Of a DNA stretch of 26,302 bases, positions 176 to 23,334 are shown piece by piece. Numbering within the stretch: the first letter of the stretch is position 1; every line of letters begins with the position of its first letter. The notes under the pieces were generated by a model. That model did not search any database and was not told the origin of the DNA. It saw nothing but the letters and a program-made list of their open reading frames with translations. Origin of the DNA: a virus (lineage: Duplodnaviria; Caudoviricetes); IMG/VR virus record IMGVR_UViG_3300015050_000883, positions 1 through 26,302 of that record; one strand, 5' to 3'. Position numbers and translations under genes: made by a program.

Positions 176-1690
176 ATGAAACCATATAAATCAAGTTCTG
201 ATAAAGAAAATTGTTCTCCTGTATCATCCAATTGTGTGATATGGCAGGGACCAGATATTTCTTGTATTAATATCTGTAAAGGAGATAGTATATCTGATAT
301 AACATATAAAATAGCTACTCAACTGTGTGACTTGCAAAACACAACATCACTTGATAATTTACAGCTTGATTGTATATTGAATATTTGTACAAATAGCCCA
401 GAACCAGAATTAACATTGGCTGCTGTTTTGCAACTTATTATAGACAAAATTTGTTGCTCTTTTGGAACACTTAATACAGCTATAGATAATATAATTACAG
501 AAGGTTTTGGTGGTTCTTCTGATGAACCAATTTTAAATTTACCTCCTTGTTTACAATATACAGATCCTTCTACAGGTTTACTAGTTACATCTTTAGTACT
601 GAGTTCTTATGTTGTTCATTTAGCAAATCAATTTTGTCTTTTAAAAGCAACAGTTACCACTCATACAGCACAGATTACAAGTCTTGATACACGAGTTACT
701 GATTTAGAAGATGCTCCATGTTGTTATATTCCTCCACTTGTTACTTCAAATTGTTCATACGGAAATATTGTAGCAGGGATTCCTACAGCTATGAATGTTT
801 TACTAGATAATTTAGATGATCAGTATTGTCAACTTAGAGATGTTTTAGGTACAAATAATCAATTAACTTCTGCAACAGCTTCACAGTGTACTAACTTAGG
901 TAGTCTAACTGCTTTAAGTCAACCTGGAACTATGTCTAGTTTAGCTGGTTGGAATAACACTATAAATAGTTTTGCTCAATCAATGCAAAACTTATGGATT
1001 ACAGTTTGTGATATGAGAGGAGTAATTGATGATCTTAGAGATTGTTGTGGTGCTTCAGACTGTTCATCTTTCTTTTTAGGATTTACAGTGGGAACAACAA
1101 CTAGTACTAATATTTTCTTGTTATTTAATTCACTTACTGTTATTCCTTCTGGATATTCAAATTGTCCAACTTTATCATCTGTAACAATTAATGATGGTAA
1201 TGGTCATTTATATACTAGTACTTTTGATTTAGTTGCTGCATCTACAAATCCTTCTGGAGTTAATTTTGATATTAGTGCTTCTGGATTAGATGTTTCTCTT
1301 CCTTGGACAATAGTGGTAACTGGTTGTATTGTAAATACTGCTGGAACGTGTACTAAAATAGTTACAAATACTATTCCTGCTCCAATACCTGTTACAACCA
1401 CTACAACTACAGCAGCTCCTTGTAATAATTATAATGTTTATATAGAAGCTGCAGATATAACTAATGCTGCAAATAATACAAATCCAGCACAAGATGGAAA
1501 TGTATATCTGTCATATATAGCTTGTGGAGACGTTGTAACATCTACAACTATTTATTCTACAAGTGGTGCTCAATCAGCAATATGTATTGATCCTATTTAT
1601 ACACCTTATTTCTTTTATTTTGATGCTGATGTATTAATAACTGGAACATCATATGTAACATTAGTAGGAACTTGTACACCACCATTATAA
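176..1690 (+). CDS. Cys-rich putative virion fibre/decoration protein (504 aa)
   Basis: N-terminal CV.W.GPD..C..I..G module shared with 1707, 3561 and 5268. Heptad-like helical stretches (e.g. VTTHTAQITSLDTRVTDLE) suggest a coiled coil. Has a poly-Thr linker and a C-terminal domain resembling that of 2024. No signal peptide. Confidence 0.6.
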   Translation: MKPYKSSSDKENCSPVSSNCVIWQGPDISCINICKGDSISDITYKIATQLCDLQNTTSLDNLQLDCILNICTNSPEPELTLAAVLQLIIDKICCSFGTLNTAIDNIITEGFGGSSDEPILNLPPCLQYTDPSTGLLVTSLVLSSYVVHLANQFCLLKATVTTHTAQITSLDTRVTDLEDAPCCYIPPLVTSNCSYGNIVAGIPTAMNVLLDNLDDQYCQLRDVLGTNNQLTSATASQCTNLGSLTALSQPGTMSSLAGWNNTINSFAQSMQNLWITVCDMRGVIDDLRDCCGASDCSSFFLGFTVGTTTSTNIFLLFNSLTVIPSGYSNCPTLSSVTINDGNGHLYTSTFDLVAASTNPSGVNFDISASGLDVSLPWTIVVTGCIVNTAGTCTKIVTNTIPAPIPVTTTTTTAAPCNNYNVYIEAADITNAANNTNPAQDGNVYLSYIACGDVVTSTTIYSTSGAQSAICIDPIYTPYFFYFDADVLITGTSYVTLVGTCTPPL

Positions 1691-1706
1691 TAAATTAAAT
1701 TAGAAT

Positions 1707-1994
1707 ATGTCTTGTAACTGTAAATTATCTTCTTCTTCATGTGAACCGTGTGCATTTTGCTCACCTCCAGGAGTTACATGTTTAACCACATGTGAACCTA
1801 TAGATCCGTGTGATGGAAAAAAAATTGATTTATGTTGTGTATTATATTCTGGTCCAGATCATGAATGTTCTGATATAATTACTGGGGATCCATTGTGTGA
1901 AATAATTATTCAAGTTTTAGAAATATTGTTTCCTCTTGATTATTGTTGTGCATTAACAGGAGAACTCACTGTAATTACTACTGCTGCTCCTTAA
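1707..1994 (+). CDS. Small Cys-rich protein consisting almost only of the shared N-terminal fibre module (95 aa)
   Basis: MSCNC start and CVLYSGPDHECSDIITGDPLCEII module. First 17 nt (ATGTCTTGTAACTGTAA) are identical to the start of 5268. Confidence 0.65.
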   Translation: MSCNCKLSSSSCEPCAFCSPPGVTCLTTCEPIDPCDGKKIDLCCVLYSGPDHECSDIITGDPLCEIIIQVLEILFPLDYCCALTGELTVITTAAP

Positions 1995-2023
1995 CTTTAG
2001 TAACTTGTACAATATAAATATAA

Positions 2024-3523
2024 ATGTCACAACTTATAAATATAACAATCACTAGCTCAGGTCCAGATCTTGGCCCCTATGATTTATTTTTAGTAGATAA
2101 CTTAAATAATGTTTCTGCTGGGCCAACTAGTATTCCAAAGTCATTATTGCTTTCACCGGGATATACTTTTATTGTAAATGATAATATTGTAAAAGTTAGA
2201 TTGCAATCAGTTAACGCAGGATGTCCATATGTTGAATTTGATGTACCTCCTCCACCCCCTATTACTACAACTACTACTGCTAGCCTTCTTCCTACATGTC
2301 CTTGTTATTATGTACAAGCCATGGAAGGATCTTCAGTATTTTGGACTGATTGTGATGGAGTTGATCAAGAAGATATATATGCAGCAATACAACCAAGGTA
2401 TTGTGCTTTACTTGGCACATTATCATGTGACGATGTTGATGCAATAATCTACGGAGGAACAATTGCTTGTATTGATGATTCTTGTCCAACCCCTCCTTGT
2501 CAATGTATGACAGTAACTAGTGTAGATGGAGTTAATATACTAATAAACTATTTTGACTGTGATGGGGCTTTTATTTCAGATGTTCCTGTATATACTATAT
2601 ATCCATTACAAGTTTGTGGTAGTAATGTAAGTTCTATAGATCCTATTGAAGTATTTTATAGTGATGACTGTGAACCTACAGGAGAAGGTGATTCAATGGA
2701 ATGCCCTACTATACCAAACTGTACAGATAACTGTAATTGTATAACATTTACAAGTAATACAGTTGCTGGTGATATTGTTAGTTGGTTTGATTGTGATTTA
2801 GGTTATCATAGTTATATGATGGAAGATTATGAAATATTAAGTGTATGTGGATCTAATCCTACATCACCAACAGAAAACATAATTATTAGTATTGGAGGCC
2901 AATGCATTGAAGAAGAAGGATGTATTTGTACAACTACAACTACTTCTACAACTACGACTACTACAACAGCTCCTCCTTGTAAGTGTTACACTGTTAACGG
3001 AATTCTTGAAAGTCCAACTGCATTAACTTATATAAATTGTGAAGGACTAAGCATTTCTTTTACAATACGAGAATCAACTATATTAGTTCCAACTGTTGTT
3101 AATTTTTGTGCACAAGAAGGAACTATAGATATTCTTCCAGATACTAATATACCAATTGATAATGGATTATGTTTATATGGTACTCCATGTTTTGCTACAA
3201 CAACTACAACAACTCCTCCTTGTGAATCCACTTTATGGGAATACACTATAACAGGAGGTGATGTAGAAAATGCAACTGGAAATACAGGTGAGCCACTCAC
3301 TGTAAATGTTCCTGAACCACTTGAAGTTACAGCATATGATGCTTTTGGTGGAGAACAACAAAGTAATTGTCCTAGTGGTAATACTGGTGGAGGAGTTGCC
3401 TTTAATGCAGGATCTATAGGAACTCATACTATATGTTCAGTTAATGAACCATATTTTTGGTATTATAGTAACGATGTTGCTGTTTTTCTAACAATGACTA
3501 ATACATTGGTTCCTTGTCCTTAA
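2024..3523 (+). CDS. Acidic Cys/Thr-rich repeat protein, putative fibre/decoration protein (499 aa)
   Basis: Four ~60-aa CxC...[W/Y]xxCxG...C[G/A]...C repeats separated by Thr/Pro linkers; very few Lys/Arg. Confidence 0.6.
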   Translation: MSQLINITITSSGPDLGPYDLFLVDNLNNVSAGPTSIPKSLLLSPGYTFIVNDNIVKVRLQSVNAGCPYVEFDVPPPPPITTTTTASLLPTCPCYYVQAMEGSSVFWTDCDGVDQEDIYAAIQPRYCALLGTLSCDDVDAIIYGGTIACIDDSCPTPPCQCMTVTSVDGVNILINYFDCDGAFISDVPVYTIYPLQVCGSNVSSIDPIEVFYSDDCEPTGEGDSMECPTIPNCTDNCNCITFTSNTVAGDIVSWFDCDLGYHSYMMEDYEILSVCGSNPTSPTENIIISIGGQCIEEEGCICTTTTTSTTTTTTTAPPCKCYTVNGILESPTALTYINCEGLSISFTIRESTILVPTVVNFCAQEGTIDILPDTNIPIDNGLCLYGTPCFATTTTTTPPCESTLWEYTITGGDVENATGNTGEPLTVNVPEPLEVTAYDAFGGEQQSNCPSGNTGGGVAFNAGSIGTHTICSVNEPYFWYYSNDVAVFLTMTNTLVPCP

Positions 3524-3560
3524 AATAAAAATAAAATGTCAATTATTTAAAATATTAAAA

Positions 3561-5228
3561 ATGTATTATTCATCAGGATGTAATTGTGGGTGTGACTATG
3601 ATTGTGGATGTAACACGGTTCCATCTACTTGTTGTACTACATGTAGTCCAATTATTACTACTACCACTATACCTTGTATAGGGGAGCTTTGTGATGAATT
3701 ATATAATTGTGAATGTGTAACTTATAGTGGTCCTGATTTAACATGCTATGGTATAATAAATGGTACTTCTTTATGTGATATAATAGAAATTATTGCTACT
3801 CATCTTCCTAATTGTGTTTCTACAGATATTTGTTTTACAATATCAGAAAATTCACTTCCTTCAACAAGTTGTGTTACTCAACCTTCTTTACTTTTATGGA
3901 ATGGTAAAGTTTACTATCAACCTAAAATTGGAAATTGTTCTACAACATTAGGATATGTATATTGGACTGGTTCACAATGGGAGTATGCTAATGGTTTAGG
4001 AGGAGGCACTCAAATATATGCTTATCTACCTATTCCTAGTGAATATCCTATTACATCTCCATCAGGACCATGGATTAATTTTGGTACTACAGTAATAATG
4101 GAAAGTTCTACAGAAGGAGTATGTCCTGTTATTACAACTACTACCACTTCGTACCCATGTCCATGCTCATGTATAACCTTTAATAATGTTGGATCAGATC
4201 CAGCTGTAGTAACATGGTTAAGTTGTGGAACCCTTATTTTTAATAGTTACACTGTTCCTGGTCTAACCACTCATCAAGTTTGTGGTACAAATTCTACAGG
4301 TGCTAGTCAAAAATTACTAATTACAATAGGAGATAGTTGTGTTCCAAGTCAAGGAGATTGTGTATGCAATGTTCCAACAACTACCACTACTAGTGCACCA
4401 ACAACAACCACTACTACTATTGCACCTTGTAAATGCTATACTATTATATATCCAACTAGCATCTTGATTCCTGTTAAATCATTTAGCTACAGAACTTGTA
4501 CTGGAATTCTTGTAGGTGGAAGTATAGTTGTAAACACATCTGTAAACATATGTGCTCAAGAAGGATCTGTAACAGCATCTGGACTTTTACTTTTTGATAA
4601 TGGTCTTTGTACAAATGGTTGTACAACTACAACAACAACAATAGCTCCAACTACAATTGCTCCATCTACATCTACAACAACATCTACAACAACTACCACT
4701 ACAGTTGCACCTACAACTACTACAACAATTCTTCCTATAGTATGTAATTGTATATTATTTTCTAATATAAGTGACGTTAGTCAATCTATTAGTTATAGAA
4801 ACTGTTCTGGTGTAATTGTTTCTACATCAATTCCTGCAAATAGTCAAGCTCAGTATTGTGGATCAAATGGAGCTGCTTCAAATCCGGCATCTGTTATTAT
4901 TATTACTGGAGGAACTTGCATAGATGGAGCATGTTTGTCACCACTAACAACTAGTACAACAACAACTACCACAACAATTGCACCACCGGCAGACAATTAT
5001 TATTTTGCTAGAGCATATGTTTGTTCAGATGATGATACTAGTTGTAATTATGCATTTGATACATATGTTAAAATGTCTGGAGCAGGTGTAATTGGAAAGT
5101 TTTACAGAGAGCCTGGGCCAGCATTACAATTGTGGTCATATAAATTAGTAAATACAACACTAATAACAACAGGAACATATTTAACAAACATACCATTTGA
5201 TACTTGTGCATTAGCATGTACTGGGTAA
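3561..5228 (+). CDS. Cys/Thr-rich mucin-like repeat protein, putative fibre (555 aa)
   Basis: Cys-rich N-terminus, shared CVTYSGPDLTC module, three CxC repeats and long Thr/Ser/Pro tracts (e.g. 4623-4727). Confidence 0.6.
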   Translation: MYYSSGCNCGCDYDCGCNTVPSTCCTTCSPIITTTTIPCIGELCDELYNCECVTYSGPDLTCYGIINGTSLCDIIEIIATHLPNCVSTDICFTISENSLPSTSCVTQPSLLLWNGKVYYQPKIGNCSTTLGYVYWTGSQWEYANGLGGGTQIYAYLPIPSEYPITSPSGPWINFGTTVIMESSTEGVCPVITTTTTSYPCPCSCITFNNVGSDPAVVTWLSCGTLIFNSYTVPGLTTHQVCGTNSTGASQKLLITIGDSCVPSQGDCVCNVPTTTTTSAPTTTTTTIAPCKCYTIIYPTSILIPVKSFSYRTCTGILVGGSIVVNTSVNICAQEGSVTASGLLLFDNGLCTNGCTTTTTTIAPTTIAPSTSTTTSTTTTTTVAPTTTTTILPIVCNCILFSNISDVSQSISYRNCSGVIVSTSIPANSQAQYCGSNGAASNPASVIIITGGTCIDGACLSPLTTSTTTTTTTIAPPADNYYFARAYVCSDDDTSCNYAFDTYVKMSGAGVIGKFYREPGPALQLWSYKLVNTTLITTGTYLTNIPFDTCALACTG

Positions 5229-5267
5229 AAATAAAATAAACCTGTTTAATAATTAAATATTTAAAAA

Positions 5268-5966
5268 ATGTCTTGTAACTGTAATGCTAAATATGATAAT
5301 AAAGTACCTTGTTGTTGCTCAATAGGGGAACCTGTTATTTGTACAACTACAGTGTGCCCAGACTCACAACCTTGTTATGACACAGTTGAAACGGATTGTG
5401 TAATATATACAGGCATTGATTATGATTGTGCCGGTATTAGTAACGGTATGACAATCACTCAGGTGATGACTGCAATACTTACTGCAGTAAATTTAGTAGA
5501 ATGTACTACAACAACTACTGCTGCTCCTAGTTGTAGTTGCTATTTAGTAATTAATACTAGTCCTACTATTTCATATGATTTTACAACAACTATTTGTTTT
5601 GGTGATCCAGAACCACAAGAATTTAGTTTACTAGCAAATCAAAGAGTATACACTTGTAGCCTTGGTCCTATAACAGTAAGTAATCCAGCTGTAACTGTTC
5701 AACTATTACCATTTACTCAGTATCAGTGTTTAGATAGAGGAGGTAATTGTTTTAATCCTGTTACGTATTGTCATACTGTTACTGTTACAGGATCTGTTAA
5801 TATAGAATATATAAATATTGATGGAATTCTTACTTATACTGGAGTAATCACTACAAGTACATTTTTGTGTGCTTGGGCAGGTAGTATTGCACAAGTTGCT
5901 GGTGCTGGTAGTATTGTAATTACACCATCAACTGTACTTTGTTTAGATAATAATGATTGTGTATAA
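5268..5966 (+). CDS. Cys/Thr-rich putative fibre/decoration protein (232 aa)
   Basis: MSCNC start, CVIYTGIDYDC module, TTTTTAAP linker and two degenerate CxC repeats. Confidence 0.6.
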   Translation: MSCNCNAKYDNKVPCCCSIGEPVICTTTVCPDSQPCYDTVETDCVIYTGIDYDCAGISNGMTITQVMTAILTAVNLVECTTTTTAAPSCSCYLVINTSPTISYDFTTTICFGDPEPQEFSLLANQRVYTCSLGPITVSNPAVTVQLLPFTQYQCLDRGGNCFNPVTYCHTVTVTGSVNIEYINIDGILTYTGVITTSTFLCAWAGSIAQVAGAGSIVITPSTVLCLDNNDCV

Positions 5967-5993
5967 ATATTAAGAACTTAATATTTTTATAAC

Positions 5994-6001
5994 TAATTTT
6001 G
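5994..6001 (+). promoter_or_regulatory. Possible Bacteroidota housekeeping-sigma -7 element (TAATTTTG)
   Basis: Exact match to the TAnnTTTG consensus, about 45 nt upstream of the GT start. No clear -33 TTTG, and AT-rich DNA makes chance matches likely. Confidence 0.3.
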
Positions 6002-6044
6002 AATTATTTATAAAAAATACCGTAATAAACCAAAAATCAACAAA

Positions 6045-6959
6045 ATGAAATTTATTTGTGCACAACCTGCCATAGATTACTATACTTGGCAAGTAGAAGT
6101 TATGATAAATAACTTTATTCGAAATGGAGTAGATCCTAATGATATACATATTGTATGTGCTCATTATGGAGAAATTTCTAAAAAATGGAATAAATTAAAA
6201 CAAACGTATTCAAAAGTTAACTTTTTCTTTTATAAAGATGACAGAATTAAACCAAGTTATATTTCTAGTGTTAGGCCTTACATCTTACATAAACATTGGA
6301 TTAGTAATCCAGAACTAGAAAAAGAAATAATATTTTATCATGATTGTGATATAGTATTATCTAAAGAAGTTGATTTTACTGATCTTCTTTCTGATACTGT
6401 ATCTTATGTTAGTGATACTGTAAGTTATATAGGAGCTGACTATATAAGATCAAAAGGAGAACACTATCTAGATCTAATGACTAGAATAGTAAACGTTGAT
6501 AAGAATTTAGTAATATCTCAAGAAAAAAATAGTGGGGGTGCTCAGTATATTTTAAAACAAGTATCTGCTGCTTTCTGGAATAAAGTATATTGGGATGCTG
6601 AAAACTTATTTAGACTTGTAAACGATCAGATTGTGAAAGACAATCCTCCACATGCTATCCAAATATGGTGTGCTGATATGTGGGCAGTTCTTTGGAATTT
6701 ATGGTTTTTTGAAAAAGAAGTTAAGGTGAGTGATAAACTTCATTTCTCTTGGGCTACTTCTCCAATTGCAGAGTGGGACAAATGTCTCATCTATCATAAT
6801 GCTGGAGTAGTAGATGGCAATAGTAAATTATTTTATAAAGGAGCATATATTAATAGACTTCCTTTTGATATAAAAATTGAATCTTTTACAGATAAACAAT
6901 GCTCTTATAACTATGCTAAGGAAATCTTAAAAACAAAGGAGGTAACATGTCTATTGTAA
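6045..6959 (+). CDS. GT-A fold glycosyltransferase, HPAT/SERGT1-like (304 aa)
   Basis: DxD motif after a hydrophobic strand (IIFYHDCD, D at 6342/6348). Colinear motifs YTWQ, YISSVRP, SYIG, SGG and WCADMW resemble YFDWQ, YPAINKP, GYLVG, VGG and WISEMY of plant peptidyl-serine galactosyltransferase (recalled, not searched). Confidence 0.7.
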   Translation: MKFICAQPAIDYYTWQVEVMINNFIRNGVDPNDIHIVCAHYGEISKKWNKLKQTYSKVNFFFYKDDRIKPSYISSVRPYILHKHWISNPELEKEIIFYHDCDIVLSKEVDFTDLLSDTVSYVSDTVSYIGADYIRSKGEHYLDLMTRIVNVDKNLVISQEKNSGGAQYILKQVSAAFWNKVYWDAENLFRLVNDQIVKDNPPHAIQIWCADMWAVLWNLWFFEKEVKVSDKLHFSWATSPIAEWDKCLIYHNAGVVDGNSKLFYKGAYINRLPFDIKIESFTDKQCSYNYAKEILKTKEVTCLL

Positions 6960-8155
6960 AAACTAAAATAGTTCATTCCGAAAATCCTTTAGAGCATTGG
7001 TCAGATATTACAGATCTTAAAAATAAATGTGTTCTTGATTTAGGATGTGGCTGGATTAATCAAGGTTTTCAATCTACTCCAGAATATTTTTTATCAAGAG
7101 GAGCTTCTAAAATAATAGGAGTTGATGAAACATGTACTGAAATAAATAGTCTTACTGAAATATATCCATCACATACATTTCTTTGTGGAAAAATTGATAC
7201 AGCAGATGATTTATCAAATCTTATTAAAACTTATAAACCTGAGTTTATTAAAATGGATATAGAAGGATTTGAAGTTTTAATAAAAGATATACCAGTTGAA
7301 GTATTTAGTAGTGTAGAAGAAATGGCTGTTGAATATCATAACCCAGAATGTAAAGAAGTTCTTATTAATAAATTTAAAGAATTAAACTTTGAAGTATTTG
7401 CTTCAAATAGTTTTGGATGGTATTGTACAGATCCTAATATAATGGGTATAATACATGCTAAAAAGAAAAAATTAAAAGTATTAGTTTTTACATCTGCTTA
7501 TTATAAGAGAGCATATATGATGAGACAAAGTATATTAAGTTGTTTAAATCAGACATATAAAAATTTAGTTCATTCTGTTAATATCACTTTAGATTCAACA
7601 TCTACAACTAAAAATCTTTCACCTCTTTATGATGATTTAGTTAATAATAATGTGGTAATTAATTATAGTGATAATTATAAACATTATGGATTTTCACATT
7701 TCAATAATATGAATTGTATAAAGTTTATACCTGATTATGAAAGTTATGACTTATTTATAAAGATGGATGATGATGATATCCATAAAAGTAAATACGTAAA
7801 AAATATAGTAAAAGCTTTTGAAGAAAATCCTGATGTTGATATAGTCTCTTCATTTATAAATGTTCAATTAAATGGACATGATTTATATCGAGCTTCCCCA
7901 ACTCCTTTTGATAATCTAGGAGGAAATCCTGGAGGAAGTGATTACCACATGCCAATGACTTTTGCTTTTAATAAAAAAGCTTTAGATCTTATTCTTCCTT
8001 TAACAGAAGCAGATGTTTGTGGACATGATGATATGATGTGGAGAGTGGCTTGGGTGAAGGCTGGTTTAAAACATGCAACTGTAAATAACAATGATGAAAT
8101 TATATGGAACATACATGGAGAAAATGCATCAGTTGCAGATTTTCTTAAAAAATAA
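6947..8155 (+). CDS. Class I SAM methyltransferase (FkbM-like) fused to a GT2-like glycosyltransferase (402 aa)
   Basis: N-half has VLDLGCG motif I and FIKMDIEGFE. C-half has VLVFTSAY..R, SCLNQTY, YDLFIKMDDDD and HDDMMW. Overlaps the upstream GT by 13 nt. Confidence 0.8.
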   Translation: MSIVKTKIVHSENPLEHWSDITDLKNKCVLDLGCGWINQGFQSTPEYFLSRGASKIIGVDETCTEINSLTEIYPSHTFLCGKIDTADDLSNLIKTYKPEFIKMDIEGFEVLIKDIPVEVFSSVEEMAVEYHNPECKEVLINKFKELNFEVFASNSFGWYCTDPNIMGIIHAKKKKLKVLVFTSAYYKRAYMMRQSILSCLNQTYKNLVHSVNITLDSTSTTKNLSPLYDDLVNNNVVINYSDNYKHYGFSHFNNMNCIKFIPDYESYDLFIKMDDDDIHKSKYVKNIVKAFEENPDVDIVSSFINVQLNGHDLYRASPTPFDNLGGNPGGSDYHMPMTFAFNKKALDLILPLTEADVCGHDDMMWRVAWVKAGLKHATVNNNDEIIWNIHGENASVADFLKK

Positions 8156-8190
8156 AAGTCAGGTTTTGTTGGTTTAATCCTGACAAACAA

Positions 8191-8225
8191 AGCCCCGGTG
8201 TTTCTACACTGGGGCTCAATTTTTT
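8191..8225 (+). terminator. Rho-independent terminator after the glycosylation cassette
   Basis: 11-bp stem AGCCCCGGTGT/ACACTGGGGCT (one G-U), TTCT loop, then CAATTTTTT. A weaker GTCAGG/CCTGAC hairpin (8158-8184) precedes it. Confidence 0.8.
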
Positions 8226-8300
8226 AAATATGTTTATATAATGTTAATAATTTAAATTAAAAGTCCTTACCTTTATATATTATAACTAATTCTTAATAAT

Positions 8301-9503
8301 ATGAATCTAATTGATAAAGTTAAACACTCATTAAAATGGAAACGGTCTAATGCATTCTGTGCTACAAAATTAGGTATTTCTATTGAGAAATACAAACAAT
8401 TAAAAAGACAAATTAATTTTAAATTTGGAGAAACTATAGAACATCCAAGAACAAATAAAATATTAGAGTTTAAAGAAGACCTTGATAAAGGTACTGCAGA
8501 AATAAAAGGACTGTCTCTTACAGAACCTAGAACTGCAGAAGAGATTATAGAACTATTAAAGATAGATGTTACTAAATGGAAGCTTAGTTCATATTGGAAT
8601 AAAGAAAGACATGATGGTTGGTTTATATCAGCCATGGTAACAGCTCTTAAACATGAACCTAAAGATATATTAGCTGATGTAATAGCTAACTTTAATCCAC
8701 GTTATGAACAAATTGGAGAAGTATTTGTAAATGAGAAGTTTACAAATGATTCTGTAGGTATTATATCTACACAAGACTTACATTTTGGAAAAGAAGATAA
8801 TACTAATATACTAGTTCACTTTAAAGAAGCTATTACTAATCTGGTAGGTAGGGCATATATGTCCCATAAACTTACTAAGATAGTTTACGTTATAGGGGGA
8901 GATCTTCTTAATATGGATACTTTCTCTGGTACAACAACAGGTGGTACTCCGGTGGATAATGCTCAGAGGGCACAGGATGCTTATGCAGAGGCTTTTGATG
9001 CATTGTATTGGTCAATAGCTTACCTTAAACAATTCTGTGACAATTTGCATGTAGTTTATGTCCCAGGAAACCATGATAGACTTAGTTCATTTCATATAGC
9101 TCATGCACTATCTAAGTGTTTTGATTTAGAAGAAAATAATATTTATTTTGATGTAGAGTATGCAGAAAGAAAAGTTGTGGTTTATGGTCATAACTTTTTT
9201 GCTTTTGAGCATGGAGATGTTACAAAAAAGAATACAGCTTTAGTGTATGCTACAGAATTTCCAGTATCTTGGGGAGCCACTAAATATCGTACCTGTTACA
9301 CTGGTCATTTTCATTCTAAAAAAACTGTTGAGTTTGTCACTGAAAATGAATATAATGGTTTTGCTGTTAAACATCTACCTAGTCTGTGTTCTACAGATTA
9401 TTGGCATTATCATAACAAATTTGTAGGAGCCAAACGTCAGGCTATTATGGAAATTCATGATGTTGAGAAAGGTAAAATATCTGAATTTATATACACTGTT
9501 TAA
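8301..9503 (+). CDS. Calcineurin-like metallophosphoesterase with basic N-terminal extension (400 aa)
   Basis: All five motifs in order: DLH, GGD, GNHD, HGD, GHFH. Confidence 0.85.
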   Translation: MNLIDKVKHSLKWKRSNAFCATKLGISIEKYKQLKRQINFKFGETIEHPRTNKILEFKEDLDKGTAEIKGLSLTEPRTAEEIIELLKIDVTKWKLSSYWNKERHDGWFISAMVTALKHEPKDILADVIANFNPRYEQIGEVFVNEKFTNDSVGIISTQDLHFGKEDNTNILVHFKEAITNLVGRAYMSHKLTKIVYVIGGDLLNMDTFSGTTTGGTPVDNAQRAQDAYAEAFDALYWSIAYLKQFCDNLHVVYVPGNHDRLSSFHIAHALSKCFDLEENNIYFDVEYAERKVVVYGHNFFAFEHGDVTKKNTALVYATEFPVSWGATKYRTCYTGHFHSKKTVEFVTENEYNGFAVKHLPSLCSTDYWHYHNKFVGAKRQAIMEIHDVEKGKISEFIYTV

Positions 9504-9521
9504 ACTATTAAAGTTTAACTA

Positions 9522-9560
9522 GGAAACCTCAAAGATTTTTCGTAAATTATAATATAAGAG
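9522..9560 (+). promoter_or_regulatory. Putative phage-specific (late) promoter, copy 2
   Basis: Same spacing as, and 31/39 identity with, 47-85. Directly precedes the IHF-ring-muzzle-cargo operon. Confidence 0.65.
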
Positions 9561-9563
9561 ATT

Positions 9564-10151
9564 GTGGCAAAACAATATAAAAAACCAGACCTTAATGCAC
9601 CAAGATTTAGACCTAAAAAATTAAATCTTACAAATATGGAATTCTATAACAAATTTATAGAAGAAAATCCAAAGTATAACACCCTTACTTTAAATCAGTT
9701 TAAAGATGTTATTAAAACTTTTAATGGTTTAATATGGAATGGTATAATAAATGAGAGAGATGGTGTGCAACTTCCTGAGCAACTAGGATATATATTTATA
9801 GGAAGTTGCCCAAGAAAAATTACTGATAATGTGGATTATCATAAAAGTCTACATTATGGGGTCAAACTTCAAAATAGAAATTGGGAATCTGACCAGTATG
9901 TAGCTAAGATTTTTTATACAAACTATGAAACTAAATATAGATTTAAAAATCATGACTTATGGGGATTCACTGCACTAAGAGATTTTAAAAGATCGGTTGC
10001 TAAAACCTACCCTAGTGAATGGAAAAAATATATTCAAGTTGATAATAAGCTTAAAATAAGCAGGTTGTTTAGATTGGAAAAGTTTAAGCAATCAAAGACA
10101 GATGAAACAAAAGAACTGTTAAAAAATTATGATGAATTTAATTTAGATTAA
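9564..10151 (+). CDS. crAss-type IHF/HU-like DNA-binding protein (195 aa, GTG start)
   Basis: Basic protein; helical N-half then GVQLPEQLGYIFI (HU/IHF-like strand-turn) and FTALRDFKRSVAK. Its position before the ring and muzzle genes matches crAss-like gene order. Confidence 0.6.
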   Translation: MAKQYKKPDLNAPRFRPKKLNLTNMEFYNKFIEENPKYNTLTLNQFKDVIKTFNGLIWNGIINERDGVQLPEQLGYIFIGSCPRKITDNVDYHKSLHYGVKLQNRNWESDQYVAKIFYTNYETKYRFKNHDLWGFTALRDFKRSVAKTYPSEWKKYIQVDNKLKISRLFRLEKFKQSKTDETKELLKNYDEFNLD

Positions 10152-11690: not shown

Positions 11691-12052
11691 TGAAAATAAT
11701 AAAAACTATAAAAGTTCCTACGTACAGTTGTGAACTGTTACTTATTATAACAGATCAGTTAAAAGCTGAATCAGAGAAAATATATAAAAAATATAAGTTA
11801 ACTTTAGAAGATGATGGTGGTGAAAGTGAAGGAATATTATTAAGTCCAGATATCGATAAATACTTTTTAATTATAGACACTAAGTATTTATCACATAACA
11901 CTATAGCTCATGAAACATATCATGCTGTTGTAAGAGTCACTGAAGATAGAGGAGTTTCTGATGAAGAAGCTCAAGCTTGGTTATGTGGTCATTTAACAGG
12001 AGTGATGTATAAATTTTTAGAAAAAAAGAAGTTTGATATAAAACATGGCTGA
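11690..12052 (+). CDS. Small HExxH zincin-like metallopeptidase (120 aa)
   Basis: TIAHETYH followed by EEAQAW, the candidate third-ligand Glu helix. Overlaps both neighbours. Confidence 0.65.
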   Translation: MKIIKTIKVPTYSCELLLIITDQLKAESEKIYKKYKLTLEDDGGESEGILLSPDIDKYFLIIDTKYLSHNTIAHETYHAVVRVTEDRGVSDEEAQAWLCGHLTGVMYKFLEKKKFDIKHG

Positions 12053-15000
12053 TCAACAACAAGGAAACCCTGGAGCAACAACTAATACCTTTAGTAAAGG
12101 TATGCTCAAAGACTACAATGATACATTTGTAGGGGAAGGGTTATATACACATGCACGTAATGCAGTGAATAACTCCCATGATGGTCAAGTTGGTGTTATA
12201 GGTAATGAGCCATCTAATTTATTTTGTATAAAACTTCCATATACTCTTATAGGATGTATACATCTTACAGATGATCAATGGGCAGTATATTTAACAGATG
12301 ATACTAATTGTGAGATAGGAATCTTTGATGAATCAGCTTGCACTTATTCAACGTTATTAAATGATCCTTGTTTGGGTTTTAAACTTAGTAATTTAATTAC
12401 TGGGACTTATCGTAAAAGATATGACTGTGAACGTTTAGTTTATTGGGATGATGGAATAAACCCAACAAGATCAATGGATGTTGATAACACACAACAGTAT
12501 TACAATTATATTGATAGCTATGTAAACAATTGTAGAGTAAGAACTTACCTTACAACTGTAAATTGTGAGACTCTTAGAATTGCTCCGTTAATTACTCATC
12601 CTTGTATTTCAATTGAAAGAGGTTTAATAGCTGGTAGTATGCCTAACGGATCTTACCAAGCTTGCATAGCTTACACTATAAATCAAGTGAAGATTACTGA
12701 TTATATTGGATTAACTGCTGTACAACCATTATGGACACATGAAAATGTAAGTAGTTCTTTAGTAATTAAAATTAGTGAAATTGATAAAGACTTTGATGAA
12801 TTTGAATTAGTAATACTATCAACTGTAAATGCTCAAACTGTAGCTAAAAGAATTGGATACTATTCTACTTCTCAAGGAACAATTTATGTTGATAGATGGA
12901 GTACAGAATATGTTTCAGTAAGTGTTGGAGACGTAGTATTTAGATCTGAACCTATTGAGAAGACAGATGCTATGTATCAAACTAATGACTATTTATTACG
13001 AATAGGTACATATAGTAAATTTAAATTTAACTATCAACCAATAGCTAATAACATTAGAACTAAATGGACAGCTGTTCAGTATCCTGCAGATTACTATATA
13101 AAAGGTAATAATAATGCAGGCTACATGAGAGATGAAGTTTATGCATTTTTTATACGTTGGATTTATAATACTGGTGAGTTTAGTGAGTCATATCATATAC
13201 CAGGTAGACCAGCTCTTCCATCTGATAGAGCAAACATTACAGGTGATGATGCATTTGAAACTCAAGTTGCTCCAGTAGTAACTAGACAAACATGGCAAGT
13301 TGAAAACACGGGTAGTATAGGTGGTTTACCTTTTGTTTTAAATCCATCATATTTAAATGGAGGAATAATAGTTGCTAGAGGTGATATGTCATATTGGGAA
13401 TCTACTGAGTTATATCCAGATAATCGTCTAGATATATGGGGTAATTTATGTGGTCTTCCTATAAGACATCATAAATTTCCTGATGAAACAGTTACATCTG
13501 TTGCAAATAATCCACTAAGTATTTTTAATAATAATGGAACCACTATAACTATATTAGGAGTTCAATTTGAAAATATACAACCCCCTCTTGATAATAGTGG
13601 TAATCTTATTCCAGGTGTAGTAGGTTATGAAATTCTTCGTGGTTCACGAGAAGGAAACAAATCTATTATTGCAAAAGGGCTTTTTAATAATATGAGGAAG
13701 TTTGACACAAAAAGCTCAAGTCAAGGTTTGTTTCAAAACTATCCATATAATGATTTACGTACTGATCCTTTTTTAACAGGACAAGGACATACAGATGATA
13801 TTTTTTCTTTTCATAGTCCAGACACAACATTTAGTAATCCTTTTTTAAATCAAGGAGAAATAAAATTATACCAAGAATTTACAGGTACTGCTAATGGCTA
13901 TTTTGAAGATTCATGGAAACATCCAAGATTTAAATTAGCATCAGGACTAGTAAAAATTGTAGGAGATATTTTATATTTAATGTCTGCTGCTGAAGCAATG
14001 CAAACTATAGGAGGTGCAATATTTAAAAAAGCTGGTGGTGCAGCTGGTGGAGCAATAAAATTTACAGGAACAGAAGACAACCCAATAGAATTTACATATC
14101 AACTATCTCCTTTTCCCTCTTCTCCAGCTGCAGCTGGAGGAAATATTACAGGAACAATTATGACAGTTTTATCATGGGCATATTATGTTTTGCAAATAAT
14201 AACTTGGGCAATAACAACAGCTGCTGTAATTGCTTTAATTGTTGCAATGTTATCTTCTAAACAACAAAAAGTATATGATGTATTTATGTATTTAGTTGGA
14301 AGAGTACAGTTTGCAGTTCAGTATAACTCACATGCTTTTTATAATACGTATAAAAGTAATTTTATAAATAACAGAAGAAGAAAAGTTCTTGAGTCGGCTT
14401 ATGGTGGAAACAATTTACAGCAGTTTGCAGGAAACTATCTTATTCAAAATATAATGAGATCTAAAGCTGTTTTTATTCAAGTCAATAAAAATATAGTACC
14501 AACTGGAAACGATCAAAGTAGATTTTTATTAGGTAATCGTAGTAAGAATACTAATATTTCTTCTCCTGTTGCTTCTTATTATGGGGCTCTTAAAATACCT
14601 ATTGCATCTCAGTATGGTCAATTAGAATCTATTAAGCAAATTCCAATAAGCACTTGTATAACACCCACTGCTAATATAATACCCACTGCTAATACAACTA
14701 CTAATATATTTTTTGGAGGAGATGTTTATGTAAATAGATTCACTGAAAAAAATACAATGCCATTTTTTACATCATGGCTTATGGGAGAACCTGATGAGTT
14801 TGAATGGAACTATCAATTATATTATAATATTCCAGATCCGGTATATTGGATAAATAATTTTAAATATAAACACAATATTTTTGGGGATTCTTTTTCATCA
14901 TATAGAAATCTTGATAATCAAAATCCTGGACTTTTTGGTGTTAATGGTGGACAGTTTTATTTATTTTGTAATGGTGTACGTGATTTTTTTGTAGAGAGTG

Positions 15001-16613
15001 AAGTGAATGTAGCATATAGAGATTGGGAAGAGGATATACCAAGAAGACATTATGATGATAGAACATTTTCTGATCTTAAAGCAATGTTTAGAAGTGACAT
15101 TGTAATTAGTGGAAACTATTACAAGTATGATTATAACTTAAGTATATCTAAATTATTTAGTAGTCATATATCATGGGGTAATCTATTACCTAGAGATTAT
15201 AGTCCTATTAAAGCTGCAAGTTGTTATACATATAGACCTAATCGTGTAATTTATTCTTTACCACAACAAGTTGGATCTAAGAAAGATAGTTGGAAAATAT
15301 TTTTAACTAATAACTACAAAGATTTTCTATCTAGAGTTTCTTGTATTAAACCTATTAATAAAACAGGTTCTCTTTTTATGATGGCTAATCAAAGTCCTAT
15401 GTCATTTATGGGAGTTGAGGAACTTAAAGTTGATGGAACAGGAGCTAAAATAACAATTGGTGATGGTGGATTATTTCAACAAGCAATGCAGTCTGTGGTA
15501 AATGTTGATGAGTCATTTGAATATGCATCTAATCAAGGAAGGTATTGTTCAATAAATACAGTGCATGGTGTATTTTGGGTGAGTCAAAACCAAGGTAAAA
15601 TATTTTTGTATGCTGGTCAGTTAAAAGAAATATCTGCAGCAGCTGGGATGAGGTGGTGGTTTGCTAAATATTTACCTTCACAACTTCTTACACAATTTCC
15701 AACATATACTTTATATGATAATCCTGTAAGTGGTGTGGGTGTTCAAATGATGTATGATAATACTTATGACATAATATATATAACTAAAAAAGATTATTTT
15801 CCATTAACAGCTGGCTTACAACTTAATACTGCAAATAATGGGTTTACCTTAAATGGAACACCAATTGCACTAACAAATACTAATCATTTTAAACCAGCTA
15901 ACTTTACAGTGAGTTATGATTGTAAATCACAAAGTTGGATTAGTTTTCATGATTGGGTTCCTACATTCTTAATTCCAGGAAGATCCCACTTTATGAGTGT
16001 AGATAAAGATAATGTTTGGAAACATAATATACGTTGTGACTCTTATTGTAACTACTATGGTATAGATTATCCATTTGAGATAGAATTTGTATCTGCTACA
16101 GGACAGACCGTAAATACAATGAGAAGTATAGAGTACTTACTTGAAGTTTATAATATGTATAATGATTGCAGAGATAAGTCTCATGTATTAGACCAAAACT
16201 TTGACCAGGCTATTATTTATAATTCTGAGCAAATTAGTGGAATGCTACAACTTAATCTTAAGACAAAGAATGATCCTTTGAATATGTTAAATTATCCAAA
16301 GATAAATTTGAGTCCAGATTATATTGATATTCAATTTTCTAAAGAAGAACAAAAATATAGATTTAATCAATTCTGGGATATTACAAATGATAGAGGAGAA
16401 TATAGTGGTATATTTAGGCCCATGTTTAATACTGAACCTAATGGTTATATTTATCCAATTAATCCTCAGTATGTAAATTATAATAAACCAGTTTTACAAC
16501 GTAAGAAGTTTAGACATAATGTTAATAGAGTATTTTTAAGAAAAGTAAAAAGTACAAATAACAAGTTCTTATTTAAAGTATCTAATCAAAAATTATTACA
16601 ATCACCAAGATAA
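12045..16613 (+). CDS. Muzzle / tail stabilization protein, crAss-like (1522 aa)
   Basis: N-terminal NTFSKGMLKD...ARNA, LVYWDDGINP, GYMRDEVYAFFIRW, FFGGDVYVNRF and C-terminal WISFHDW motifs; beta-rich; size and position between ring and cargo genes. Confidence 0.75.
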   Translation: MADQQQGNPGATTNTFSKGMLKDYNDTFVGEGLYTHARNAVNNSHDGQVGVIGNEPSNLFCIKLPYTLIGCIHLTDDQWAVYLTDDTNCEIGIFDESACTYSTLLNDPCLGFKLSNLITGTYRKRYDCERLVYWDDGINPTRSMDVDNTQQYYNYIDSYVNNCRVRTYLTTVNCETLRIAPLITHPCISIERGLIAGSMPNGSYQACIAYTINQVKITDYIGLTAVQPLWTHENVSSSLVIKISEIDKDFDEFELVILSTVNAQTVAKRIGYYSTSQGTIYVDRWSTEYVSVSVGDVVFRSEPIEKTDAMYQTNDYLLRIGTYSKFKFNYQPIANNIRTKWTAVQYPADYYIKGNNNAGYMRDEVYAFFIRWIYNTGEFSESYHIPGRPALPSDRANITGDDAFETQVAPVVTRQTWQVENTGSIGGLPFVLNPSYLNGGIIVARGDMSYWESTELYPDNRLDIWGNLCGLPIRHHKFPDETVTSVANNPLSIFNNNGTTITILGVQFENIQPPLDNSGNLIPGVVGYEILRGSREGNKSIIAKGLFNNMRKFDTKSSSQGLFQNYPYNDLRTDPFLTGQGHTDDIFSFHSPDTTFSNPFLNQGEIKLYQEFTGTANGYFEDSWKHPRFKLASGLVKIVGDILYLMSAAEAMQTIGGAIFKKAGGAAGGAIKFTGTEDNPIEFTYQLSPFPSSPAAAGGNITGTIMTVLSWAYYVLQIITWAITTAAVIALIVAMLSSKQQKVYDVFMYLVGRVQFAVQYNSHAFYNTYKSNFINNRRRKVLESAYGGNNLQQFAGNYLIQNIMRSKAVFIQVNKNIVPTGNDQSRFLLGNRSKNTNISSPVASYYGALKIPIASQYGQLESIKQIPISTCITPTANIIPTANTTTNIFFGGDVYVNRFTEKNTMPFFTSWLMGEPDEFEWNYQLYYNIPDPVYWINNFKYKHNIFGDSFSSYRNLDNQNPGLFGVNGGQFYLFCNGVRDFFVESEVNVAYRDWEEDIPRRHYDDRTFSDLKAMFRSDIVISGNYYKYDYNLSISKLFSSHISWGNLLPRDYSPIKAASCYTYRPNRVIYSLPQQVGSKKDSWKIFLTNNYKDFLSRVSCIKPINKTGSLFMMANQSPMSFMGVEELKVDGTGAKITIGDGGLFQQAMQSVVNVDESFEYASNQGRYCSINTVHGVFWVSQNQGKIFLYAGQLKEISAAAGMRWWFAKYLPSQLLTQFPTYTLYDNPVSGVGVQMMYDNTYDIIYITKKDYFPLTAGLQLNTANNGFTLNGTPIALTNTNHFKPANFTVSYDCKSQSWISFHDWVPTFLIPGRSHFMSVDKDNVWKHNIRCDSYCNYYGIDYPFEIEFVSATGQTVNTMRSIEYLLEVYNMYNDCRDKSHVLDQNFDQAIIYNSEQISGMLQLNLKTKNDPLNMLNYPKINLSPDYIDIQFSKEEQKYRFNQFWDITNDRGEYSGIFRPMFNTEPNGYIYPINPQYVNYNKPVLQRKKFRHNVNRVFLRKVKSTNNKFLFKVSNQKLLQSPR
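14663..14694 (+). repeat. In-frame 18-nt-period duplication (ACCCACTGCTAATA x2)
   Basis: Direct reading; encodes TPTANI-IPTANT. Confidence 0.8.
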
Positions 16614-21126: not shown

Positions 21127-23334
21127 ATGATTAATCAATTTTTAAAATTAGGTGGAGTTAATACAATAGAAGAGTTCTATAGTAAATTTCCAACAGAATC
21201 TCATTTTGATAACCATGTTTACCAGATGAAATATGGTGGTGGTGTGGATGTATATAATGATGGAGGTTCTTATCGTAGCTATCAAGAGGGAAGTACTGTA
21301 ACTGCTGATCCAAAACCTTATGGAGGTGTAAGTATAGTGGATTTATTAGTTTCTAAAGGTAAAGCTTCAAACTATGCATCAAGAAAAAAGTTTGCTGAAT
21401 CTTTAGGTATGACTGGATATACTGGTAGAGCAGGAGAAAATAATAAACTTATAAATATGATTAACAGTAAACCAGATATTTTAAATAACTATGAAGTTGT
21501 TAAAGAATCTGCTAAGTCTGTTACTAAAGCTAAAACTAAAGCTTCTAAAGAATATCAGCCTACACAGGAAGAAATTAATGCTTTTATAGCTTCAGAAAAA
21601 TCAAGACAAGCTAAAGAAAACCCTTATATAACGGCTCCAGCAAATAATGGTTTTAAATCATATTCTTCAGATAAAAGTAATTTTGGTGTGTTTCCATTTG
21701 ATAATAATAGTTATTTAGCACAACCTACTAAACAAAGTAATCCTACTAAACAAAGTAATCCTGCTGATTGGAAAGGTAGAAATCAAAAAGGTCAATTACT
21801 ATCTAATTTTAAAAAAGCAGAACAAATTGCAACTCCACAAACACCAAGTGAGTTGTTTAATTATCCTTGGATGAAAGATATAATAAAAAATTATAATCTT
21901 CCTAAGTCAACTAAACCAGTAATTGGCACAGAAGCTGATGCTAGATATTTAGAATCTGGAATGATTACAGATAAAAATAAAGGTGTTATGTATGTTGTAA
22001 TAGATGGTAAGGTTGTTAAAACTTTTCCTGTAATGACTGGTTTAAATAAAGATGGAGAAATAAATGATACAGGAGTAGGACAGATAGACCAATTATTTAA
22101 AACTGACCCAAAAAAAGCAAATAAAGCTAAAGCTACTCCAACAGGTACTTATTTATCAGTTCCTGTTCCTCATGTATATGGTAAAAAAGGATTTGCAATG
22201 AATCCTATACCTGCATTTGGAGAAGCTGCTCCTAAAGTTACAGATCTGTATCAACATACTATATACGGAACTAATCCTCGTGTTGGAGATTCTGGTTATG
22301 ATCCTAAAGAAGGTGCTAGAAGACTTAAAATTATGAAAGGACCTGGTGAAAAAAGAAATGCTAGCTATGGTTGTACTAACTTATATGGACAAGATATAGA
22401 CTGTTTAACAGGACAATTATTTCCTAAAGGAGATACAACCATAGTAGTTGATAGTAGAAGAGCTAAAGATCAAAATTTTTTAAAGAACAAATATGGTATA
22501 AAAGAATATGGTGGAGATGCTTATGCTAATGTACCTCAACATGGTAATCCAGGTGTATATGCAGATGGATATAGTGGTACATCTAGTGGTGGTCAATACT
22601 TTGATTATGGTGGTTCTTATATTCCTGATTATAGTGAGTCAGCATATAACCTTCCTCAATATGAAATGGGTATGGCGGAAGGTGGTCCTATATACAGTGA
22701 TATGACACAATATAATCATCAAGGAATAGTACCAGCTTTTGATTGGATGCAAGATGGTGGTTCTCCTTTGTACAGTACACAAGGTCAACAATTACGTAAC
22801 TTTATGAATACTGTAGGATATACTCCAGATGGTTGGATGCCTAATCATATACAACTTCCTCCTGTAGGTCCTAGAAGGTATGATGATGGTGGTATGTCTC
22901 CTGATCAAGCTGCAATGATGGCTCAACAACAAGAACAACAAGTTTCTCCACAGGGAGCACCAGAACAAAATGGTGGTGGAATTGATCCACAACAAATTAT
23001 GCAAGAAGTTGCCCAGATGTTACAGCAAGGTGCTCAACCTGAACAAATAATGCAACAACTTATACAAGAAGGTGTACCACAAGAAATGGCACAACAAATT
23101 ATACAACAAGTTATACAACAAATGCAAGTTGGACAAGAGCAAGAACAAGCTCTACAACAAGAAGCTATGGAAGGAGCACCACAAGCAATGTATGGTATGG
23201 GAATGAAATATGGTGGAAGTAATGATAAAAAAGGTAAATTTGCTAATCAATATAAAGTTGGTGGTGAATATAATATGAATGATACTGATATTAAAAAATT
23301 AATAGATCAAGGTTATAAAATTCAATATATATAA
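21127..23334 (+). CDS. Virion cargo-like protein with DUF3597-like putative cell-wall-binding domain and YkuD-like L,D-transpeptidase domain (735 aa)
   Basis: SIVDLL..KG..SNYASRKKFA..LG..GYTG....N..L at 21331-21462. YVVIDGKVVKTFPVMTG, TPTG.Y, His (22255) and ASYGCTN (Cys 22372). Gln/Met-rich helical block near the C-terminus. Confidence 0.75.
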   Translation: MINQFLKLGGVNTIEEFYSKFPTESHFDNHVYQMKYGGGVDVYNDGGSYRSYQEGSTVTADPKPYGGVSIVDLLVSKGKASNYASRKKFAESLGMTGYTGRAGENNKLINMINSKPDILNNYEVVKESAKSVTKAKTKASKEYQPTQEEINAFIASEKSRQAKENPYITAPANNGFKSYSSDKSNFGVFPFDNNSYLAQPTKQSNPTKQSNPADWKGRNQKGQLLSNFKKAEQIATPQTPSELFNYPWMKDIIKNYNLPKSTKPVIGTEADARYLESGMITDKNKGVMYVVIDGKVVKTFPVMTGLNKDGEINDTGVGQIDQLFKTDPKKANKAKATPTGTYLSVPVPHVYGKKGFAMNPIPAFGEAAPKVTDLYQHTIYGTNPRVGDSGYDPKEGARRLKIMKGPGEKRNASYGCTNLYGQDIDCLTGQLFPKGDTTIVVDSRRAKDQNFLKNKYGIKEYGGDAYANVPQHGNPGVYADGYSGTSSGGQYFDYGGSYIPDYSESAYNLPQYEMGMAEGGPIYSDMTQYNHQGIVPAFDWMQDGGSPLYSTQGQQLRNFMNTVGYTPDGWMPNHIQLPPVGPRRYDDGGMSPDQAAMMAQQQEQQVSPQGAPEQNGGGIDPQQIMQEVAQMLQQGAQPEQIMQQLIQEGVPQEMAQQIIQQVIQQMQVGQEQEQALQQEAMEGAPQAMYGMGMKYGGSNDKKGKFANQYKVGGEYNMNDTDIKKLIDQGYKIQYI
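21724..21759 (+). repeat. 18-nt tandem repeat CCTACTAAACAAAGTAAT x2 (PTKQSN)
   Basis: Direct reading. Confidence 0.85.

Follow-up and report, generated by a model that had tools for sequence, protein, structure and literature searches.

What do glycosyltransferases (GTs) act on when a phage encodes them directly behind a row of threonine-rich proteins? This question is raised by positions 176 to 8155 of a 26.3-kb virus record (completeness 22%) from a freshwater crAss-like phage, the whole of which was analysed and is called the window here. The block holds seven open reading frames (ORFs), referred to by their start positions (Table 1). Genes 176, 1707, 2024, 3561 and 5268 encode Cys-rich proteins, four of them with poly-Thr tracts, and are followed by a GT-A enzyme, 6045, and by 6947, a fusion of a methyltransferase with a GT2-like domain. 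We find that 6045 and the poly-Thr tracts are gained and lost together, and that this coupling extends far beyond the crAss-like phages. We regard it as likely that the block encodes a protein O-glycosylation system, in which 6045 would prime the Thr/Ser tracts, the GT2 domain would extend the glycan and the methyltransferase would cap it, giving linkers that are extended and protease-resistant.

Enzyme and poly-Thr tracts occur together within the lineage

Loci were picked by the exonuclease gene 8301, independently of the enzyme, and runs of five threonines (Thr5 runs) were counted in the 80 loci obtained. All 15 loci with the enzyme have at least three Thr5 runs; of the 65 loci without it, 53 have no run and 12 have one. 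When the set is restricted to the 66 loci with the full 10 kb upstream, the enzyme-positive count is 13/13 and the 53 negatives have no run (45 loci) or a single run (8 loci). The enzyme is missing from the entire record in all 47 of the 65 negatives that were tested (19 of them at least 90% complete), with three out of three positive controls detected. A further set picked by the ring genes gave 14 positive loci with at least two runs and 66 negative loci with none or one. Orthologues of gene 176 in the enzyme-negative phages have no tract. The clean case is a pair of sisters, L207 with both enzyme and tracts and L209 with neither.

Locus L291, a close relative, was set aside as uninformative: tracts are present, but the contig breaks off short of the enzyme slot. 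A putative capsid gene upstream in this contig was not confirmed. Upstream of its structural block (L291:2-919 and 2118-2585) there is a gene with an LCIB/C-type carbonic anhydrase domain and a match to the PHROG 'starvation-inducible transcriptional regulator'.

Coupling in unrelated phages

The 6045 family was found by tblastn in 77 cultured-phage records, the hosts being mostly Lactobacillus, Enterococcus, Staphylococcus, Lactococcus and Clostridium; a Chryseobacterium myovirus is also among them. Nine of the 77 records were opened, and all nine have tracts beside the enzyme. In eight Firmicutes phages the tracts lie on or beside capsid, tail-tube, portal or decoration genes, typically at the C-terminus, and in MA9V-3 they are on two unannotated neighbours of the enzyme. 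Within the genus Coetzeevirus, R3.3 has the enzyme and Thr tails on both capsid and tail tube, and Bassarid and phiJL-1 have neither enzyme nor tails within the stretch fetched. Every prophage locus with the enzyme (31/31) has a run, in 28 cases at the end of the gene directly upstream. Picking by capsid or tail-tube genes instead gave 12 loci, of which 11 (two of them short) lack both and one has both.

Among viral loci picked by the enzyme, 76 of 80 have a Thr5 run. In L032, with no run nearby, tracts are found at another place in the complete genome, and L010 carries a Thr/Ser tract in its convergent neighbour. The family member at L020:3574-4545 has an internal stop codon and there is no Thr6 run on its 9-kb contig, which could mean either that the gene decayed once the acceptor was lost or that the stop is a sequencing error. 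The correlation between GT presence and Thr-rich genes, whose absence would have counted against the sequence-only reading of the window, is thus found both in this lineage and in unrelated Firmicutes phages.

At some loci the tracts tether tip domains (L008:7287-8405 and 8863-9921; L003:2859-7658; L201:1707-4742), for example papain-like proteases behind an Ig domain, or Fib_succ_major domains.

Poly-Thr tracts separate Cys-rich modules

Cys content is 5.4–14.7% in the five upstream proteins, compared with 0.2–2.3% in the other 11 genes of the window. Runs of at least four threonines number 14 and merge into 10 tracts (one in gene 176, three in 2024, five in 3561 and one in 5268). Runs of at least five number 13, whereas 5000 residue shuffles gave 0.13 on average and never more than 3. 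The ten or so tracts claimed from sequence alone were therefore all recovered, including a longest one of 35 Thr/Ser/Pro residues, but they are carried by four of the five genes rather than by all, since gene 1707 has no run of this kind.

The Thr codons of the tracts are mixed (ACA 35, ACT 35, ACC 7 and ACG 1), and neighbouring tract codons are identical in 24 of 64 cases, with 0.41 expected. This mixing rules out an origin by DNA slippage, as in a microsatellite, and the repeat is therefore maintained at the protein level.

Genes 2024 and 3561 share a Cys-bracketed module of ∼65 amino acids (aa), for which six of nine candidate copies score 30–61 bits, compared with ≤10 for shuffles. For the gene 2024 modules alone, a leave-one-out hidden Markov model gives 30–42 bits against ≤10, with the first copy not significant. 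The two Cys-rich segments of gene 5268 did not score as this repeated module. A different, N-terminal Cys-rich module is common, as judged by eye, to genes 176, 1707, 3561 and 5268. Gene 3561 has no Pfam, PHROG or NCBIfam family, and its ESM Atlas matches (≤0.82) are to unnamed viral clusters, again without a family. Most tracts sit between the ∼65-aa modules. Thr/Ser/Pro tracts are thus found between Cys-rich domains, as in mucins; the term 'mucin-like' is accurate for this architecture but denotes an analogy, not membership.

Outside the block, a large putative cargo protein at 23337-26300 of the window has a Thr5 and a Thr4 run near its N-terminus and is possibly a further acceptor.

6045 is modelled as a GT-A glycosyltransferase

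The AlphaFold2 model of 6045 has a predicted local distance difference test (pLDDT) score of 95.9, and its top Foldseek and VIA matches are GT-A enzymes. This model places 6045 in the GT8/GT24/GT6-like fold group of GT-A enzymes, with 8–12% identity to its matches there. The earlier assignment of a GT-A enzyme directly behind the fibre genes is upheld by fold, although 6045 has no Pfam match, including none to Pfam GT8. PDB sequence searches with 6045 and with its alignment returned nothing meaningful. Three motifs are invariant in a 38-row alignment of the family: D100-x-D102, H251-N-A-G and W208-C-x-D211-M212. They include the DxD and metal-binding His expected of a GT-A enzyme (D100, D102 and H251), with the motifs present in 125 and 148 of 150 loci. 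The enzyme appears to be soluble.

The family comprises 3361 proteins when clustered at 90% and 999 when clustered at 50%. In many of these proteins it is fused to GT2, GT6, GT7, GT25, GT29, GT32-type or methyltransferase domains. P0142 and P0131 are two fusion proteins, one with a GT29 sialyltransferase-like domain and the other with radical SAM/SPASM. P0252, in which Thr tracts seem to be fused to a family member, was set aside because it is one isolated sequence that shows signs of frameshift both at the joint and at its end.

The genes behind 6045 form a variable cassette

The methyltransferase domain of 6947 shows 34% identity (E 3e-23) to a stand-alone protein of L206 that in turn matches Methyltransf_31 (E 1e-6). 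Motif I and this homology identify it as a class-I S-adenosylmethionine (SAM) methyltransferase. The methyltransferase–GT fusion proposed from the sequence therefore holds as to the class-I methyltransferase, but 'FkbM-like' is a weak label only, because the match to TIGR01444 reaches 16.5 bits against a cut-off of 37.7, and there is no PF05050 match. In four relatives this slot is occupied by true FkbM domains. The GT2-like domain scores 23.2 bits with PF00535, the cut-off being 23.3, and many of its homologues carry PF00535. These homologues number 62, and most of them stand alone or are joined to GT6, GT25 or methyltransferase domains; the GT2-like domain has no phage match at all. A PDB sequence search with 6947 gave nothing meaningful.

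Between the enzyme and the exonuclease, 21 of 26 genes in 13 enzyme-positive relatives are GTs or methyltransferases, comprising GT2, GT6, GT7, GT11, GT31/Fringe and GT34 enzymes and methyltransferases in changing combinations. No such gene is found among the 122 genes in the slot of 23 enzyme-negative relatives. Because the slot enzymes vanish with 6045, and because the 6045 family is fused to GT and methyltransferase domains, these sequence comparisons support a single pathway in which the first step is constant and the later ones vary.

Gene 176 is modelled as a trimeric fibre

Residues 14–340 of gene 176 were predicted as a parallel homotrimer with a score of 0.83, the best control scoring 0.00. 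In calibration, 20 of 30 true pairs and 1 of 23 monomers scored at or above the mark used, counts that are only roughly valid for three copies. The trimer prediction has a pLDDT of at least 77, and the runs share at least 75% of contacts. Long helices, an FN3/Ig-like sandwich (aa 293–405) and a disordered Thr linker follow one another in the model, which is of a trimeric coiled-coil fibre architecture. A PDB sequence search with the gene 176 alignment gave nothing meaningful. Its profile matches two genes of phage Lbo-JY46 (E 3e-10 and 2e-4), one of which is annotated as a tail fibre.

Since gene 176 models as a trimeric fibre and its profile matches an annotated tail fibre, a virion location of the acceptor proteins is likely on sequence grounds, the case being weakest for 1707 to 5268. 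The N-module is common to the block proteins and an annotated tail-fibre gene, and the block lies upstream of the crAss ring genes. The description of all five genes as fibres is supported for gene 176, through its trimer model, and is presumed for the other four.

Thr tracts and FN3 arrays as alternative decorations

In the slot before the exonuclease gene, compared across L204-L278, relatives without the enzyme carry FN3 arrays, which are found in 23 of 122 proteins and at 16 of 23 loci. Enzyme-positive relatives have Cys modules with Thr linkers, and Pfam detects FN3 in none of their 84 proteins from 15 loci; gene 176 nevertheless retains a single FN3-like fold not detected by Pfam. In the Firmicutes phages Planchet and RQ1, frameshifted Thr tracts lie behind slippery-looking sites. 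One is a poly-Thr frame that overlaps the end of the major capsid gene in the −1 frame (L083:7742-7885), and the other is at the end of the major tail gene in the +1 frame (L086:7611-7928); the Planchet frame is unannotated. These sequences suggest that Thr tails are added by programmed frameshift. Slippery sites at the ends of capsid and tail-tube genes add Ig/FN3 domains in other phages.

This pattern, which is phylogenetically thin, suggests that glycosylated Thr tags are an alternative surface decoration to Ig/FN3 domains. A wider proposal, to which we would give slightly less than even chances, is that poly-Thr and a 6045-type enzyme make up a portable 'tag and writer' module for any surface protein in place of Ig/FN3 domains. 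The hypervariable cassette would then generate glycan 'serotypes', and 6045 would represent a new family of cytoplasmic polypeptide-Thr glycosyltransferases.

Proposed mechanism and alternatives

In the O-glycosylation scheme that we favour, the tracts would serve as dedicated acceptor tags and 6045 would act in the infected cytoplasm. With a host nucleotide sugar and a divalent metal, it would attach the initial sugar to Thr/Ser hydroxyls in the tracts, probably retaining the configuration. The GT2 domain would then extend the glycan and the methyltransferase would O-methylate it. By analogy to O-glycosylated cellulase linkers (PMC5939190, in its accessible portions), the glycosylated linkers would remain extended and resist proteases. 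They would hold the Cys-stabilised modules and tip domains off the particle, which would present a variable sugar surface.

The main doubt about these later steps is whether 6947 belongs to them. If no enzyme other than 6045 works on the tracts, and it attaches just one sugar, the fusion could instead have DNA, a host surface polymer or a free nucleotide sugar as its target and merely share the end of the operon. None of the eight Firmicutes phages has a further annotated GT as an immediate neighbour of the enzyme, which suggests that one enzyme is enough there. A methyltransferase–GT2 fusion in the order of 6947 is also rare among the 62 homologues, and phage GTs often modify DNA or host serotype (PMC12619734, as far as the consulted part of that paper goes). 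Against this, the slot enzymes vanish together with 6045 and the tracts (0/122 versus 21/26), and the direct fusion of the 6045 family to many GT and methyltransferase domains points to one pathway; we judge a separate role for 6947 unlikely. That 6045 is coupled to the tracts in some other way, by transferring a sugar-phosphate or other group or by binding them as a chaperone or structural partner, seems to us distinctly improbable. We give marginally less credence again to the idea that the tracts are flexible linkers without any modification, that DNA or the host envelope is the target of the enzymes, and that linkers and enzymes are merely co-inherited as one module. Linked genes are inherited jointly, there were few independent changes in the lineage, and L019 has the enzyme with no tract nearby. 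However, the tracts are on unrelated proteins (capsid, tail tube, portal and fibres) and nearly always beside the same enzyme family, this pairing spans siphoviruses, myoviruses and crAss-like phages, and congeneric phages without the enzyme have orthologous proteins without Thr tails.

Several observations weigh against O-glycosylation of the tracts. A quick tree of 68 rows (13 identical rows dropped) needs only ∼3 changes in enzyme presence, so there are few independent events in the lineage. The ring-gene set largely repeats the contigs picked by the exonuclease, and twelve enzyme-negative loci each carry one run. The intact enzyme at L019:7804-8724, the fourth of the enzyme-picked viral loci without a Thr5 run, has no tract on its 24-kb fragment and stays an exception; the similar neighbour gene in L010 does have a Thr/Ser tract. 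GTs are not always tied to tracts, because L209, a relative without enzyme and tracts, carries an unrelated GT4–GT9 fusion upstream of its fibre block (L209:998-3736). The GT-A fold leaves the acceptor open, and several top matches act on sugars, not peptides. Structural support for a fibre, itself from a model, is limited to gene 176. The sugar coat rests on computation: the computed results are the fold, the coupling of the genes and the trimer, and from these we infer the glycan, its donor and the virion location, along with the activity and chemistry, the order of steps, the sugar and the stiffening and shielding role.

Layout of the block and its genomic setting

The gaps within the block are AT-rich and 16–78 nt long, and the ORFs of 6045 and 6947 overlap by 13 nt. 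The strong terminator expected after the enzymes is present as a hairpin with a T tail (Table 1). Within the block, the other terminator prediction on the + strand is one weak 6-pair site inside gene 176. Most of the block is covered by contigs from RNA libraries of lake and freshwater runs (X1: 29/30 bins), but these are not used as evidence, because contigs cannot demonstrate transcription or a single transcript.

Table 1. Positions in the window of the genes, tracts, domains and hairpins of the block
Position	Strand	Feature	Basis or detail
176..1690	+	504-aa fibre-type protein: Cys-rich N-module, segmented trimeric coiled coil (aa 14-340, predicted), FN3/Ig-like sandwich (aa 293-405), Thr6 linker (nt 1394-1411), C-terminal tip domain	
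1707..1994	+	95-aa Cys-rich protein, mostly the shared N-terminal module	no run of ≥4 Thr
2024..3523	+	499-aa bead-on-string protein, four copies of the ∼65-aa Cys-bracketed module	three copies significant
2264-2278, 2930-2968, 3197-3214	+	Poly-Thr tracts of gene 2024	
3561..5228	+	555-aa bead-on-string protein, shared N-module and three Cys modules	
3657-3668, 4134-4148, 4377-4418, 4623-4727, 4956-4976	+	Five poly-Thr tracts of gene 3561	
4623..4727	+	Candidate acceptor, longest tract: 35 residues, Thr/Ser with IAP/VAP spacers	sequence
5268..5966	+	232-aa protein: shared N-module, Thr5 linker (5505-5519), two Cys-rich segments	
6045..6959	+	GT-A glycosyltransferase, proposed priming enzyme, 304-aa single domain	unnamed phage family phrog_4417
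6947..8155	+	402-aa methyltransferase–GT2 fusion	
6947..7462	+	Class-I SAM methyltransferase domain (aa 1-172 of fusion)	
7463..8155	+	GT2-like domain (aa 173-402 of fusion), candidate chain-extending enzyme	PF00535 E 7e-5
∼8158-8184	+	Second hairpin, just upstream of terminator	lies within 8150-8235, a stretch that folds at z = −5.2
8191-8216	+	Intrinsic terminator-like hairpin closing the block	11 pairs and T tail

On the 3′ side, the block is followed by the metallophosphoesterase/exonuclease gene 8301, two crAss tail-ring genes and a gene (12045-16613) for a 1522-aa virion protein. The crAss-like assignment is supported by tail-ring and muzzle-like protein domains (PF25702, E 9e-20; PF24228, E 2e-14) and by the match of gene 12045-16613 to Cellulophaga phage phi17:2. 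The best cultured matches of this gene are Leptolyngbya phage Lbo-JY46, a gut phage and Cellulophaga phages phi17:2 and phi4:1. Lbo-JY46 is a 125-kb phage with the same gene order as the window, and the host on record for this best match is a cyanobacterium, which cautions against assuming a Bacteroidota host. A literature search found no publication on Lbo-JY46. Genes 176 and 10827 have no match among cultured phages, and related contigs are up to 120–130 kb long. The gene at 21127-23334 has a weak YkuD L,D-transpeptidase match (E 7e-4) and a Gln-rich C-terminus.

Significance and comparison with known systems

Virion glycosylation made by the phage itself is established for few phages. If our reading is correct, it would be extended to crAss-like, dairy and gut-Firmicutes phages, a function would be assigned to a large unnamed family, and the poly-Thr runs in many phage structural proteins would be explained. 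A soluble enzyme with a short Thr tag as its substrate would also be of use in glyco-engineering. The cultured carriers R3.3, iLp84 and bIL285, together with the tail-less congeners Bassarid and phiJL-1, make the idea testable. Our literature search found no description of coupling between poly-Thr and a GT, an absence that is uncertain as most subscription papers lay outside the search. By word search, neither glycosylation nor threonine is mentioned in the paper on MA9V-3 (PMC13120357) or in one on a Lactobacillus myovirus (PMC6669764).

The closest precedent is in mycobacteriophages, where Freeman et al. 2023 reportedly described virion O-glycosylation in Che8 and its relatives. The accessible parts of two papers describe capsid glycans in mycobacteriophages, phage-encoded GTs and glycans on structural proteins (PMC11256854, PMC12619734). 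As there, the GTs here (6045 and the GT2 domain) are phage-encoded, and the C-terminal glycans of mycobacteriophage capsids and tail tubes, as far as those sources cover them, are placed where the Firmicutes relatives have Thr tails. The present block differs in its many long Thr tracts on fibre-type proteins and in having the enzymes directly behind their targets. No Mycobacterium phage is among the 77 tblastn records, and by sequence the 6045 family appears unlike the mycobacteriophage glycosylation enzymes, though the system would work similarly.

As to the enzyme itself, LgtC, glycogenin, the UGGT catalytic domain and WbbM, all retaining enzymes of GT8/GT24/GT6, share 8–12% identity with 6045, and their acceptors cannot be transferred to it. 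6045 is a single GT-A domain without a lectin domain, and GT27, the family that primes mucins with GalNAc, is not among the fold matches listed. Plant HPAT1-3 (GT95) and SGT1 (GT96) add the first sugar to runs of hydroxy amino acids and are GT8-related (PMC4908140, in the part available). They are thus like 6045 in fold, but on the same partial source their acceptors are Ser and hydroxyproline in the endoplasmic reticulum and Golgi, whereas 6045 appears soluble and its partner tracts are Thr. The proposed priming thus resembles that of plant extensins, but no HPAT or SGT1 structure is among the PDB matches listed for 6045. None of 101 members of the 6045 family matched the HPAT family PF23452, although one ESM Atlas look-alike cluster of 6045 (score 0.98) has 10% PF23452 members. 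A direct PF23452 search of the window gave no match, but its positive controls were equally silent.

For the tracts, the nearest likeness is to secreted proteins. Linkers of bacterial cellulosomes are glycosylated. In cellulases, O-glycans on Thr/Ser/Pro linkers are expected to extend the linker and protect it from proteases, according to the part of the source consulted (PMC5939190). These cellulase- and mucin-type linkers are, as here, disordered, Thr-rich and placed between folded domains. The proteins that bear them are secreted and are modified by host pathways, as far as that source goes, whereas here both the substrate and the enzymes are viral and would presumably meet in the cytoplasm.

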